NCBI RefSeq assembly: GCF_036588685.1
Contig: NC_086378.1
Coordinates: 15,438,001-15,502,000, forward strand
Reading direction: 5' to 3'
Source of the DNA: Mytilus trossulus
Lineage: Eukaryota
Length of the DNA stretch: 64,000 bases
The notes beneath the pieces were generated by a model. That model was not told the origin of the DNA, did not search any database, and saw only the letters and a list, made by a program, of their open reading frames with translations. Numbering within the stretch: the first letter of the stretch is position 1; each line of letters begins with the position of its first letter. This document shows, in pieces, positions 3,097 to 17,846 of the stretch. The translations under genes were made by a program, and so were the position numbers.

Positions 3097-4049
3097 GTAC
3101 AAACTCAATATCAATAGAATATATAACCACAAAACCAGAAACGTAGTGACCTACCGAATAAGACTATGACCGGTTTTGTACTAGCATGGTACAAACGGGT
3201 GCCACTTGTGGAGCTTGATAGAATGCCGGAGCCCCTTATGTTCGTATTGCGTGTTCTTTGTTTTTATGTTGTGTTTTGTTTACCATTGTTTGTCTGTTTG
3301 TCCGTTTCTTTTTCAGCCATTGCATTGTCATTTTATTTCAGATTGTTGAATGTAAATCTGGTATTTTTTTCCCCTTTTCAGCATTTTAATGAGTACCTTT
3401 TTAATTAAACTAATAAATATAAACGTTGTACTTGTTATCCTCAATACAAAGTGTTTTTTTTATTTTTGCTCTAAAGTATTTAAGAAAAAGACTATATAGA
3501 TTTCAATTCATGTTTTACATTTTTGGATATCAAGTTTGGTCCTCACTGATGACGCTCGGTTGTTATTGCAGATCTGCTGATTTATCTATCACCTTTGAAG
3601 GACGAACAAAAGTCAATGCACCCCTTGAACAGTATTTTGCGATACAATCTTTCTTTTTCACAGGGTCCTGCAGATTTCTACACATCGAACACATTACGTT
3701 TGCCAACACACTGACAATAACACTAGATTTGTCGTTGGGTAATCCTTTATTAAGTTTTACATGATTCAATTGGTCCGTTATTCCTGTAAAACAAATCCTG
3801 TATTAATCATTTTTGAACGTACACGATATTGTATTTCAAGTAATAAGCTTTCGAAAAAATACCAAGCAAGATACACTTCCACTACTAACTGGTCAGAGTC
3901 ATTACATTTTAAGCTGCTTCAATTGCTTTTTTTTTTTTTTTATCAAAATGTAAAATGAATTTAAATGATATAATTCCTTGTACATTTGTACATAGACAGA
4001 TGAAAATTGAAAAGATAGATGTTAATTATTAATAACTGGATTTCCATCC

Positions 4050-4545
4050 TTATTTGCTTTCCCCCGACAAATGTATGTATGTACTTCGAGATGCCGCCAG
4101 TTGAGACGCCTCCTTGATTGACTTCAAGGTAACAGTGGATCAATGTACTCTCCCTTAATGGATTAAAGGAGATGTGTCCTTTACAATAGTATCCCACCAT
4201 CAGAACAATCCCCACCCAAAACCGCCCAAAGGGAGCGTGTAGGAAGAATTATGGGGGAGGAAGCCGAAGTGTTCGGAGAGAACCACCGGGCTTCTCGGCG
4301 AAAACAGACAACCCGAAGAGATTTAAGAAGATTGATCGCCAGATAAATCTGGGAACAACTTTGACCTACCGGGGCCTCCGAAGTATCCAATCTAGTTTAA
4401 ACTCCAGTCTTGATACCAGAGATGTGTGTGAGAGGGTAAAATTCACCCTACTGATGTACTGTAAATTCGACGTCTCGAGTGAGAATCGAACTCGGGACTG
4501 TCAGTACTGAAGCCATCAGTCTTAACCACTAGACCACGAACTCAC
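4050..4545 (-). mobile_element. tRNA-derived SINE in the intron of paralog 1
   Basis: The minus-strand head (4545-4475) has an A box (TGGTCTAGTGG) and a B box (GTTCGATTC), followed by a GC-richer body. The 3' boundary is approximate. Confidence 0.6.
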
Positions 4546-4684
4546 ACAAACGAGATTGTTAAAGTTTGGGGCCTCCTTAGCTGCTTCCATGGGAAATTTA
4601 GGGTTGATGTTATAAGTTATGCTTATCAAAATACAAATGCATAATTAAAAAAAATATATATGCTTTTTAATTGCACAGGGTGTA

Positions 4685-4877
4685 TTTCTTATTCAAGGCA
4701 TAGATAACTTAGCCGTATTTGGTATAACGTTTTGAAATTTTGGGTTTCCCTTGCTCTTAATCTTTATACTTGTTAGGATTTCTAATTATTTTGATCTGAG
4801 CGTCAATGATGAGTCTTATGCAGACGAAACACGTATATGGCATACCTAATTATAAGCCTGGTACATTTGATGACTAT
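4685..4877 (+). repeat. Degenerate retrozyme (family A) fragment
   Basis: Matches the 15.3-16.3 kb repeat. The hammerhead core is mutated (CGTCA-ATGATGA-GTCTTATGCAGAC-GAAA at 4801-4829). Confidence 0.65.
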
Positions 4878-5383
4878 TCGTACCTTGTTGTAGTTGATTC
4901 GAACGGTTTCAATCTCATGATGTCTTAGTTTTTCAGCGTAATGTTTTTGCTTGTTGACAATACAATCTACATAAAAATAAATATTTCAAAATTGTTCTTA
5001 CCTGAATAGCTTCTTTGTGTAAAGCAATAAGACTAAAGCCAACATCAGCGAGCAATGGGACGGAATTGCCATACTGGTACTTCAGCTGTTTACTCACATA
5101 AATGCAGTAATGGGATTTAATACAATATGTCATCACTTATGTCGTGTAGTTGAATACATTTGAATAGCTTGAGGTAATTCAATACTTACTGTCGGAAATA
5201 AGCAAATCATGTGAATAAAAACCCATTTAAAACGTTCCTGTTTCATTAATTATCATAGCAAAAGTTGTCATGACAACATGTAACGATAGTACAAAGGTCT
5301 TTCTTAGATAATTGTGTAGAATATTTAGGAACAGCTTTATATTGAGGCATACAACTTCATTTAAGTCGTCGTTATTCAAGTAA

Positions 5384-14665: not shown

Positions 14666-15329
14666 CTTTACAACGACTTATTCCCTGTGTTTATCTTCAC
14701 ACTATAATTTTACGTAACTTATTTTATGCGAAGTACTTCATTTACATAGTTTAGTGTCATCTTTGATGCATCACTTATCTATCTTGTATTATTTTGTTTT
14801 AGTAAGCATTATCTAGTAATTTGTAAAAAGAATCAATCAAATAATATTGAAACGTAAAAGGTTAATTTTTCCAAAGGAAGATAGACTCCAAGGAAATGTA
14901 AAAGTAAAACTTGACAAGTGACAAAATGGAACTTGAAATGTCACATTGCAGGAATACGTTGAATACATTCGAGAACATCACTACCAATCGTGTGATAAAC
15001 CCGATATTTACAAAGAAACGTTCGTAAAAAACTATTGTTTTTTTTACAATAAATTATCATCTATGCAACCTGTTATTAAAATTTAATTGTGTAGTGCAAA
15101 TCAGAATATATGATAATGCTATTACAAAAAAAAAAATCATATAAAACAAAGAGTACCTTAAAATCTAATTTATCAATTGCGATCGTAGTTTCCTGTTTTC
15201 ATTTAACAAACACCAAAGCATGTTTGAATAAGTGATAAACAATTAGCCCGAGAACAATAATATTTAGGCAAAAGTATTAGACGCAAATGTCTTTAGGCTG
15301 GACAAATCATTTCAAAATTATATTCATTT

Positions 15330-16341
15330 TCAGAACTTTATTTGGACTTGTTTTGGATTCAAGCGTCACTGATAAGTCTTTTTGTAGACGAAACGCGCGT
15401 CTTGCGTATATAGAAAAAAATAGAAAACAACACGTTTTATAATTTATTGCGTCCGAAGCGCTTTTCTGGATTTACCTTCATCAGGAACGCTAAAAGCCAA
15501 ACATTTGAAATCCGAAGATGTATAAGTACCGAAAATCGTTGAAGAGCTATATGTCAAAAATACCTAAAATAAATTAATTTAGTCCTAGTATCTATGATGA
15601 GTTTATTTACAACCACTGGGTCGATGCAACTGCCGATGGAGATTTAATTCCCTGAGGGTATCACAAGCCCAGTAGTCAGCACTTTTTTGTGCTGACATGC
15701 ATTTTCATTGATATGGTTATATTTATAAATTTACTGTTTAAAATTTTTTGAATTATTTGAAATACTAAGGCTTTTCTACCTCAGGCATAGATTACCTTAG
15801 CTGTATTTGGCAAAACTTTCAGGAATTTTGGTCCTCAATGCTCTTTAACTTCGTTCTTTCTCTGGCCGTTTTAACTTTTTTGGATTCGAGCGTCACTGAT
15901 GAGTCTTTTTGTAGACGCAACGCGCGTCTGGCGTATATTTTAAATTAAGTCCTGGTATCTATGATGAGTTTATTTACAACCAGTGGCTCGATGCCTCTGC
16001 TGGTGGGGATTAATTTCCCCGAGCTGGTATCATAAGCCCAGTAGTCAGCACTTTTTGTGCTGACATGAATTGTCATTGGTATGGTTATATTTATAAATTT
16101 ACTGTTTACAATTTTTTTAATTATTTGAAATACTAAGGCTTTTCTACCTCAGGCATAGATTACCTTAGTTGTATTTGGCAAAACTTTTAGGAATTTTGGT
16201 CCTCAATGCTCTTCAACTTCATACTTGATTTGGCCTTTTTAATTTTTTGGATTCGAGCGTCACTGATGAGGTTTTTTGTAGAAGAAACGCGCGTCTGGCG
16301 TATATTTTAAATTTAGTCCTGGTATCTATGATGAGTTTATT
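15330..16341 (+). ncRNA. Retrozyme family A tandem array (~367-bp unit, three hammerhead motifs) with an antisense family B insert at ~15421-15575
   Basis: CGTCACTGATGAGTCT..AGACGAAACGCGCGTCTGGCG-like motifs at ~15364, 15891 and 16258 each carry one core or stem II lesion. An intact family B hammerhead lies on the minus strand at 15449-15490. Confidence 0.8.
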
Positions 16342-16621
16342 TCATATTGCAACATTGACATAGTTGAACTCTCTCTTTATCTCTTTTACTCACTCTCCAT
16401 TGTTCAGAAAAGTACATTCTTTTTTTCTAGTTTGTACTTTCCATATGATTTTATTATTAGAGTAAGTCTTACATTTCTCACTTCAAACACTACAACATAT
16501 ATAATTTAAAACTTGTATTTGTGTAGGTGAAAGTTGATATTTCTTTGGTTCAATTTATAAGTAATTAATTAAAAAATTTCTCGCTACTTTAAACGTTTAC
16601 TTGATAGTTTTTAAACCAGAA

Positions 16622-17846
16622 TTAGAATTTTGCGTTCTTGGATATAACACTTGATCTTTTGTAAGGATGTCTAGAAAAAACCTGAAGTTTTGGTTTTGTT
16701 TCAATCATTCTTGGTGCCTGCACAAGAGAAAGTTTTCTCTTTAAACAAAATTTCGTGATGCAATTCTTCTTTTTCACTGGGTCCTTTATCTTGCTACACA
16801 ACGAACATAACATATTAGTTAATTCAGCAATAACGCCCTGGGTTTTGTTCACGGGAAGTCCTTTATTACCGAAAATGTCAAAGTGAATTTTTCTTTTGAT
16901 GATGGATACGTCAGTTGAATGTCGCATAGCATGGGTTCCGCTTGATAGGCAAAATTTCTTACTGCACTTTTCACGGTCGTTTTTATTGGAAATTTTGCTG
17001 CATGCCTCACATGCGATATCTGTCAGAATTGGAATAATAGTGGCAATACTATTACGTTGCCATTCAACAAGATCTTTCTCGAGTTTGATAGGATTTAGTT
17101 GTCTGTTTGTTCCTATAAAAGAAAGACAAATATTAAATAAATGTTGAATGTACATATTTTTTTTTGTAATTTTAGCATAGGAAATATCTGATGAAGTATA
17201 CATTTGTTGTTTGTTTTTTTTTTTTTTTTACTTTTTAGAGGCCGGTTGAAGCCCGCCTCTGGATGCAGGATTTCATCGTTGTGTTGAGGACGCATCGGTG
17301 GCCTTTAACTGTTTTATTTTACTTTTTGGCACGAACTATTATAACTATGTTTCATATCGAGTTTTGTGTTCTTCAAGTACGTGTTAGTGTGTTAACTTGA
17401 GTGAAGTAAGTTATTGCATTTGACATTTGAACTACATAGTGAAGCAGGAAATAATTACTCTTTTTGATAACATGAGATCACGCATCTTTTTACGCTGGAC
17501 CTCGGGTTAATTTTAATCTAAACGATTTTTGTTTGGAGATTGATTTAGATTTTTTCCATTTAAAACGTAATGCGGTTTCACAGACCATACATGGTACTTA
17601 TAACGTTTTTGGAATTGTGGACCCTGATCAACTTTACATTATATTGTCCATCTGTTTGCACTATATTACTGATTTGTCTTATGTAAACGAAAGGATGGTC
17701 TCGCGTACAAAAATGTTACACTGGTATCATTGATGCGTTTGTTTTATAAAAATAATTAAAAAAAAGTTCTTACCTGTGATTTTGTGTTTATAGCAACAAA
17801 CTGATGACCAGGATGCTAATATCAACATACAGGACAGTATTTTCAT
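16622..17846 (-). CDS. Secreted 4-Cys module peptide precursor, paralog 3 (187 aa, two cationic modules)
   Basis: Exon 1 is 17846-17774 (MKILSCMLILASWSSVCCYKHKIT, signal peptide, GTAAGA donor, phase 1). Exon 2 is 17112-16622 (acceptor TCTTTTATAG) and is in frame. The modules are CEAC-x11-C-x4-C and CSLC-x11-C-x4-C, with KRK sites flanking module 2. Confidence 0.85.

Follow-up and report, generated by a model that had tools for sequence, protein, structure and literature searches.

Three tandem genes of Mytilus trossulus encode predicted secreted helix-hairpin modules that resemble the cysteine domain of abalone AP7

The gene cluster

Sequence inspection of the window, a 64,000-nucleotide stretch of Mytilus trossulus DNA, locates three minus-strand genes with five cysteine modules. 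The genes and modules recovered here include every module sequence quoted in the original prediction.

3563..3783, minus strand: gene 1 exon 2 with a single module (C-x2-C-x11-C-x4-C, core 3691-3629)
3784..5001, minus strand: gene 1 intron of 1218 nt with GT..AG ends, spliced out in a contig of run X1
5002..5072, minus strand: gene 1 exon 1 (window allele), signal-peptide-like, 71 nt, phase 2, with an RNA-like contig junction
12189..12589, minus strand: gene 2 exon 2, two modules and a Glu-rich linker, acidic
12491-12435 (x9) and 12269-12210 (x10), minus strand: gene 2 modules
14599..14665, minus strand: gene 2 exon 1, signal-peptide-like, 67 nt, phase 1, junction shared with GenBank models P0012 and P0013
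16622..17112, minus strand: gene 3 exon 2, two modules and a basic tail
17011-16949 and 16807-16745, minus strand: gene 3 modules, both x11, 68 codons apart
17774..17846, minus strand: gene 3 exon 1, signal-peptide-like, 73 nt, phase 1, matching XP_063442920.1

The C-x2-C-x9-11-C-x4-C pattern occurs six times in the window; 100 shuffled versions contain it 0.04 times on average and twice at most. C-x2-C-x11-C-x4-C is exact in three of the five modules, and the other two have a shorter central spacing (x9 and x10). The sixth match, at 45953, lies in a short frame and is likely to have arisen by chance.

Genes 2 and 3 have the exon structures that were originally claimed for them (14665-14599 / 12589-12189 and 17846-17774 / 17112-16622), with a 67-nt and a 73-nt first exon, respectively, and phase 1 in both. 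The predicted product of gene 2 has 155 amino acids, and its second exon is barely covered in four runs that were chosen via gene 3, a result that says nothing about its expression. The 187-residue gene 3 product is identical, letter for letter, to an uncharacterised M. trossulus RefSeq protein (XP_063442920.1, P0006). Contigs of runs X1 and X2 match gene 3 exon 2 up to 17111, with 47 and 97 letters beyond this position. The name 'STAB1' carried by M. edulis CAG2236415.1 was rejected, since this sequence joins a gene 3-like part to a gene 2-like one.

The single phase-1 architecture proposed for the whole cluster thus stands for genes 2 and 3 but not for gene 1, which has a 71-nt, phase 2 first exon in the window. 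An RNA-like contig of run X1 splices this gene by joining 5002 to 3783, and it has one base fewer than the window allele at 5026. The copy on contig C15 has a first exon of 70 nt with phase 1. Because of one extra base near 5026, the window allele is out of frame with exon 2; with the 5002/3783 junction it encodes 34 amino acids and reaches a stop ahead of the module. Exon 2 terminates 7 codons before the end of the C15 copy. A weaker alternative acceptor AG at 3797 would give an open frame, and it was discarded because none of the contigs listed uses it. None of the runs listed is recorded as RNA, and their records carry no library or tissue description.

A modular family and its predicted fold

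According to a hydropathy heuristic, the first exons of all three genes encode a hydrophobic, signal-peptide-like core, as had been proposed, and the same kind of N-terminal core is present in 10 of 10 relatives examined. Proteins of the family occur in several Mytilus species and in a scallop. They have one to four modules each with a period of about 68 residues (bivalve range 59-86, mostly 67-71), and the x11 spacing is found in 54 of the 62 modules collected. All 21 distinct modules compared share C-x2-C ... C-x4-C, with four conserved cysteines and zero conserved histidines. A tree of the modules has support for 4 of its 29 branches and leaves most relations unresolved. Several broken copies and a changing number of modules are seen in the family, a pattern that fits a defence family too.

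The sequences between modules contain a recurring helix, and KR or RR is present in just 6 of 17 linkers at scattered positions, so that there is neither a conserved cleavage site nor a conserved propeptide. Together with the scallop member and the variable repeat number, this makes the three genes look less like a Mytilus-only peptide family than like part of a modular family of predicted secreted proteins. The terms 'lineage-specific', in its narrow sense, and 'peptides' should therefore be dropped from the earlier description. Its statement that the family was unrecognised is borne out by Pfam and NCBIfam searches, in which no family scores above its cut-off. Among proteins of 24-81 residues, a word-based search found nothing at E 10, and a full-text literature search with six family motifs and six accessions found no mention of them. 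Two queries of the ESM Atlas gave no usable match, a result that is informative on neither absence nor novelty. The bivalve family is undescribed: it has no Pfam model, and its members are all named 'uncharacterised'.

The helix hairpin expected for each module is predicted by AlphaFold2, which places helices at residues 8-24 and 30-40 of a single module (pLDDT 76). A two-module protein gives a pTM of 0.66, and neither model contains a strand. In these models, a linker helix is predicted to be followed, in each repeat of about 68 residues, by a hydrophobic helix that ends in CxxC and, after a short loop, by a Lys-rich helix carrying C-x4-C, and two repeats are predicted to pack as one helical bundle. 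Searches with both models by Foldseek and VIA-align reached neither E 0.001 nor Z >= 8.

The two-module model does align at Z 6.0-7.3 with generic four-helix bundles, which include interferons. This might suggest that the proteins are secreted signalling or recognition ligands, such as pheromones, gamete factors or cytokine-like bundles, that engage a receptor through a helical surface, and molluscs do have small helical pheromones that are secreted and rich in disulfides. However, Z scores below 8 indicate only a common helical arrangement, and ferritin-like folds score equally well. The variation from one to four repeats would also be unusual for a ligand, and a scallop neuropeptide survey shows no motif of the scallop protein in its supplements. 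We regard this as quite an improbable explanation.

The main rival, ranked second among the explanations and possible but rather doubtful, is an antimicrobial or toxin-like role. The modules would then be cationic, amphipathic hairpins or bundles, stapled by disulfides and secreted into mucus or haemolymph, where they would bind and disturb microbial membranes. The AP7 likeness described below could then be real, with a module of defence proteins occurring in shell too, or due to chance. The net charge of the window modules (0 to +5) and the pI of the exon-2 products of gene 1 (9.4) and gene 3 (10.0) favor such a role. The original characterization as mostly cationic fits the modules, but it fails for the exon-2 product of gene 2, which is acidic (pI 5.0), a point against defence. 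A clustered multigene family in which several copies are broken, the number of modules varies and one allele is frameshifted is reminiscent of mussel CRP-I (PMC10138031, in part), and Foldseek lists weak, non-significant rows for the alpha-hairpinin-like peptides Tk-hefu (E 4.2) and the Ara h 1 leader (E 5.5). In contrast, dN is lower than dS in all three comparisons of window and C15 copies (0.09 versus 0.19 for gene 3), a conserved propeptide or dibasic site is lacking, and orthologues across Mytilus species are 76-91% identical, unlike hypervariable mature defence peptides. If the family is defensive, then it adds a new four-cysteine helical scaffold to the mussel effectors.

Similarity to the abalone nacre protein AP7

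The original prediction took two-disulfide helical hairpins as the closest structural analogy and overlooked abalone AP7, the closest described relative. AP7 (PDB 2JYP) is matched in six of seven PDB sequence searches at E 0.014-0.072 (rank 1 in five, rank 2 in one), and it is the sole PDB match of a profile made without the window sequences. The scallop protein P0022 as sole query does not match AP7, and no match in these searches reaches E 0.001. In one of them, unrelated DsbC-type CxxC proteins score on par with AP7 (E 0.012-0.059). Nine of 22 residues are identical between the gene 1 module and AP7 residues 12-33. Random sequences with matched cysteine spacing score as high as AP7 in 25, 16 and 4 of 20,000 trials. 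By hand count, AP7 has 7 of the 17 residues common to the family, and modules 1 and 2 of the H. laevigata protein Tri_24151 have 4 and 9, with 1.7 expected; these counts are not independent tests, because AP7 was chosen post hoc as the top match and Tri_24151 is its homologue.

An alternative reading is that the bivalve proteins are structural or metal-binding secretions of byssus, mucus or periostracum that are restricted to bivalves and have converged with AP7 on a simple cysteine spacing. The borderline E-values are compatible with this, as is the short alignment of 22 residues. The first helix, the hydrophobic one preceding CxxC, is the best-conserved non-cysteine part of the bivalve family, and it is unaligned to AP7. 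2JYP is also missing from the Foldseek and VIA-align matches listed, among them the 18 rows that Foldseek gives for the module model, although this absence excludes nothing. Convergence is nevertheless unlikely, given that the non-cysteine matches exceed the spacing-matched null and that H. laevigata likewise has two modules in tandem, at a comparable period. Specifically, Tri_24151 is an AP7-like protein of 149 residues with a signal peptide that is abundant in nacre, and its cysteines (58/61/73/78 and 121/124/136/141, from supplement peptides) form two C-x2-C-x11-C-x4-C modules 63 apart (PMC6003135, in part). We conclude from the sequence comparisons that the bivalve module is probably homologous to the AP7 cysteine domain.

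Granting this homology, a matrix role becomes somewhat the likelier outcome. Our leading explanation, which we hold at not quite even confidence, is that these predicted secreted proteins with AP7-homologous hairpin modules are self-associating matrix components of mantle or shell secretions; a shell-matrix role in mussels is suggested tentatively. Metal binding, self-assembly and mineral nucleation have been described for AP7 in vitro (summarised in PMC6003135, in part). Outside the cell, the four cysteines of a module might form two nested disulfides, or they might instead coordinate a metal ion, which has been proposed for AP7. Modules could pair through their hydrophobic helices, and the Lys-rich face could bind polyanions, for example acidic proteins of the matrix or surfaces of carbonate. 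The product of gene 2, which is acidic, and those of genes 1 and 3, which are basic, may be complementary partners. Exact family motifs are absent from three shell-proteome supplements (PMC4517812, PMC5854119 and PMC6641155), files that may omit the sequences, and from the supplement of one mantle transcriptome.

More speculatively, the AP7 cysteine domain could be a single repeat of a secreted helix-hairpin module that is ancient in molluscs, was kept in gastropods and pteriomorph bivalves and was multiplied in tandem, either with use in the shell matrix of both classes or with shifts between a role in defence and one in shell. On this view, the '58-residue insertion' of H. laevigata would be a second module. 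AP7 was reported as undetected in pearl-oyster ESTs (PMC3120837), and literature searches on AP7 and mollusc terms found no report of a bivalve homologue in the portions of text retrieved. A point against the AP7 link is that a 1.84-billion search returned 15 matches with no abalone among the 6 named proteins. AP7 is among the best-studied nacre proteins and serves to illustrate shell toolkits that are not shared. If the ancient origin is correct, then the AP7 module was already present in the ancestor of gastropods and bivalves, a shell protein supposed to be confined to abalone joins an old mollusc family, and the AP7 C-terminal domain is a repeat unit rather than an abalone-only 'pseudo-RING' oddity. 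A bivalve family with the AP7 module would also offer a direct test of disulfide versus metal binding.

Comparison with known systems

Plant alpha-hairpinins and scorpion CS-alpha/alpha peptides of the kappa-hefutoxin type are two-helix hairpins with four cysteines, the arrangement predicted for the module; their disulfides are nested (C1-C4 and C2-C3). Their spacing is C-x3-C ... C-x3-C, unlike the bivalve consensus, and the bivalve modules have no conserved flanking cleavage sites and no significant sequence or fold match to alpha-hairpinins. The likeness is best treated as an analogy only. The CS-alpha/beta peptides of mussels (defensin, mytilin and myticin) have six to eight cysteines and combine a helix with a beta-sheet; membership was rejected in view of four cysteines per module, strand-free models and the lack of a Pfam match. 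RING fingers hold eight metal ligands in a cross-brace. This assignment was also rejected, since the modules conserve four cysteines but no histidine, and the zinc-finger rows in Pfam are sub-threshold.

Mytilus CRP-I, which is secreted, and the window family, which is predicted to be, are both clustered, with single- and multi-module genes and pseudogenes (PMC10138031 and PMC4558851, both in part). CRP-I is encoded by four exons and combines a six-cysteine array (C-C-CC-C-C) and a knottin fold with a propeptide that carries a dibasic site (PMC10138031, in part). The present family differs in having four cysteines in each module and a predicted structure of helices alone, and the genes of the window have two coding exons. 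CRP-I membership was rejected on the basis of the four-cysteine modules, with their different cysteine array, and the lack of a conserved KR or RR.

AP7 of Haliotis rufescens (2JYP, Q9BP37) and Tri_24151 share a signal peptide, predicted in the bivalve proteins, and C-x2-C-x11-C-x4-C with the bivalve family, as well as I/L-x-D-P, an R or K before the third cysteine and an aromatic residue before the fourth. Tri_24151 and genes 2 and 3 each have two tandem modules about 63-68 residues apart. The bivalve module differs in being Lys-rich, in having up to four repeats and in its conserved hydrophobic helix directly before CxxC, where the abalone peptides have proline or polar residues. AP7 additionally has an N-terminal mineral-interacting domain of 30 residues, for which the bivalve proteins showed no counterpart, and the comparison made here covers the C-terminal 36 residues of AP7 (2JYP).

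Gene models in the window

A six-frame scan recovers all five originally predicted four-cysteine modules (C-x2-C-x9-11-C-x4-C) in three co-oriented genes, whose minus-strand frames end at 3563, 12189 and 16622 (genes 1, 2 and 3, with one, two and two modules). The window contains the module pattern six times, where 100 shuffles average 0.04. Splice enumeration gives these models for genes 2 and 3:

Gene 2: 14665-14599 / 12589-12189, minus strand, 155 aa, phase 1
Gene 3: 17846-17774 / 17112-16622, minus strand, 187 aa, phase 1

The RefSeq protein XP_063442920.1 (Mytilus trossulus, 'uncharacterized LOC134723225') is identical to gene 3; the M. 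galloprovincialis and M. coruscus orthologues and a second M. trossulus copy show 76-91% identity. Contigs of sequencing runs X1 and X2 extend to 17111 and have more letters beyond it, which is compatible with the 17774/17112 junction, although the joint itself is not displayed. Gene 2 is backed by GenBank models with the same junction and by a conserved copy on C15, another contig of this genome. Between genes 2 and 3, at 15340-16340, a high-copy element is repeated in tandem (~367-nt units), and here the window differs from the C15 copy.

Entry into exon 2 in phase 1, originally predicted for all three genes, fails for the window allele of gene 1. Its exon 1 is 71 nt long and frameshifted, and splicing 5002/3783 leads to a stop after 34 residues; the C15 copy has a 70-nt exon 1 and phase 1. 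A 290-nt X1 contig joins 5002 to 3783 and has one base fewer than the window, at 5026. Because this contig skips a 1218-nt GT..AG intron it points to a spliced template, the RNA nature of the runs being only a guess. Both exons are also bridged by a contig from another study's run, X20, whose sequence is more divergent. Either the window carries a null allele of gene 1, or the assembly is in error here.

An insertion of ~1.76 kb, built of ~500-nt tandem units and absent from the C15 copy, occupies 5385-7144, ending about 310 nt from the gene 1 ATG on its upstream side. It sits within an A run, has a hairpin-like palindrome at its end and is very deeply covered in each of the four runs; it resembles a Helentron-type non-autonomous element. 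Other features of the window are:

39133-47686: transposon-like stretch with long frames on the plus strand, of which one matches HECT weakly (E = 4e-4), and an integrase core domain (rva_4, E = 4.5e-28) in a minus-strand frame
52118-53695: minus strand, carboxylesterase-family frame of 525 aa (COesterase, E = 3.9e-121)
32497-32790: exon-like frame with Cys and Trp in Ig-like spacing by eye and no Pfam match

Copies, relatives and predicted fold

Five protein searches and local scans of fetched stretches give a lower bound on further copies in the genome, here on C15 and a second contig, C6:

C15:1.90-1.92 Mb: second copy of genes 1-3
C6:23.736-23.742 Mb: four-module gene matching the stored relatives P0008 and P0009 (M. 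californianus)
C6:20.603 Mb and C6:20.329 Mb: frameshifted copies
C15:8.0895 Mb: partial copy
C15:8.094 and C15:8.104 Mb: two single modules with altered spacing

The C15:1.90-1.92 Mb copy is either the other haplotype or a recent duplication. Between it and the window, dN and dS are 0.018 and 0.022 for gene 1 and 0.009 and 0.041 for gene 2 (few changes in either), and 0.092 and 0.189 for gene 3. Divergence is patchy, with 85% identity near gene 2 exon 1 (14317-14903), 90% near gene 3 (16340-20000) and 97-99% near gene 1.

A 12-module profile searched against 1.84 billion representatives matches 15 proteins with E no higher than 0.001: five named Mytilus proteins, XP_021356367.1 of the scallop Mizuhopecten yessoensis (E = 2.4e-5; 95% probability against the family profile) and nine others. 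Proteins of the family carry one to four modules with a period of 59-86 residues, mostly 67-71, and the x11 spacing occurs in 54 of 62 modules (all stored proteins, redundant ones counted). Across 21 distinct modules the cysteines never vary, and a hydrophobic run, I/V-I-P/A-I/E-L-T-D/N-M-L, stands before them. An extra cysteine after CxxC (CxxCC) is present in the four-module relative P0018 (481 aa), in P0004 and in both modules of an abalone protein from Haliotis laevigata. The M. edulis protein P0005 (CAG2236415.1, named 'STAB1') fuses a gene 3-like start to a gene 2-like end; the likeliest readings are a chimeric model, a mis-named one or a deletion allele.

AlphaFold2 predicts two helices per module, in agreement with the helix-hairpin fold originally expected. 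The gene 1 module (15 sequences) has helices at 8-24 and 30-40 (pLDDT 76, pTM 0.47), and the gene 3 two-module region (9 sequences) has five long helices (pLDDT 71, pTM 0.66). Nested C1-C4 and C2-C3 disulfides would be expected from the predicted hairpin together with secretion. Fold searches find nothing more specific than generic hairpins and four-helix bundles. The best match of the two-module model reaches Z 7.8 across 133 residues at rmsd 3.5 and that of the single module Z 4.4; Foldseek gives no E below 3 for either.

The 'conserved start' of the original prediction aligns with a segment that is found again in the linkers between modules and that the model shows as helical. Because of this recurrence, and because KR or RR appears in only 6 of 17 linkers, without a fixed position, we infer that a domain unit of ~68 residues describes the repeat better than a released peptide does.

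Relation to described proteins and possible function

The family stands outside the known mussel cysteine-rich peptide families, as proposed; in the available part of PMC10138031, the cysteine array of the six-cysteine CRP-I peptides is unlike that of the window genes. Six family motifs and six family accessions are absent from main texts in a full-text literature search. This bivalve family is real, transcribed and undescribed, with a putative function only.

Searches of 177,635 PDB sequences match 2JYP, the 36-residue C-terminal domain of the H. rufescens nacre protein AP7, in six of seven cases (E = 0.023, 0.034, 0.061, 0.047, 0.014 and 0.072); the scallop protein alone as query does not match it. 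These values are borderline, with DsbC-type CxxC proteins at E = 0.012 in one search. The AP7 cysteine spacing is identical to that of the bivalve module, and the match extends beyond the cysteines, because spacing-matched random 36-mers equal AP7's score in only 25, 16 and 4 of 20,000 trials with three profiles.

The available part of PMC6003135 ascribes protein-protein interaction, self-assembly and in vitro mineral nucleation to the AP7 C-terminal domain, whose four cysteines probably bind metal ions. Carried over to the mussel proteins, a matrix role is the leading but tentative candidate. Exact motifs and accessions are absent from the supplements of PMC4517812 (5 files), PMC5854119 (1), PMC6641155 (4), PMC10639161 (6) and PMC5996578 (6), files that may not list sequences; Mytilus shell and byssus proteomes other than these may bear on the matrix question. 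Defence would be a rather unlikely role, and signalling a very unlikely one. AP7 was undetected in Pinctada fucata ESTs according to the available part of PMC3120837, and the available parts of PMC6416723, PMC2989941, PMC5400390, PMC9781830, PMC4897951 and PMC12357810 contain nothing on bivalve AP7 homologues.

Tri_24151, an AP7-like protein of H. laevigata, is 149 aa long, carries a signal peptide and makes up >1% of hypochlorite-treated nacre protein; the available part of PMC6003135 describes it with a '58 aa-long insertion'. Its cysteines fall at 58, 61, 73, 78 and 121, 124, 136, 141 (supplement rows, files 1-12 of 27), and these positions place a second C-x2-C-x11-C-x4-C module within the insertion (residues 52-78 region). 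This module lies 63 residues before the first-known one, is unremarked in the available text and gives Tri_24151 the two-module layout of genes 2 and 3. In a hand count against residues present in >=15% of the 21 bivalve modules, average composition would give 1.7 matches of 17. AP7 has 7 of 17 (P = 6e-4), Tri_24151 module 2 has 9 (P = 7e-6) and module 1 has 4 (P = 0.075), figures that overstate the case because the null takes no account of Lys-rich composition and AP7 entered the count as the top hit.

The abalone proteins differ in having no aligned counterpart of the bivalve hydrophobic helix directly before CxxC, which counts against homology of the whole unit; in the available Tri_24151 data, hydrophobic stretches (37-46 and 98-109) end ~12 residues upstream of CxxC. 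A bivalve-only structural family that converged on the AP7 spacing would be quite improbable. Judged from sequence, the bivalve family is probably distantly related to AP7 and varies in repeat number.
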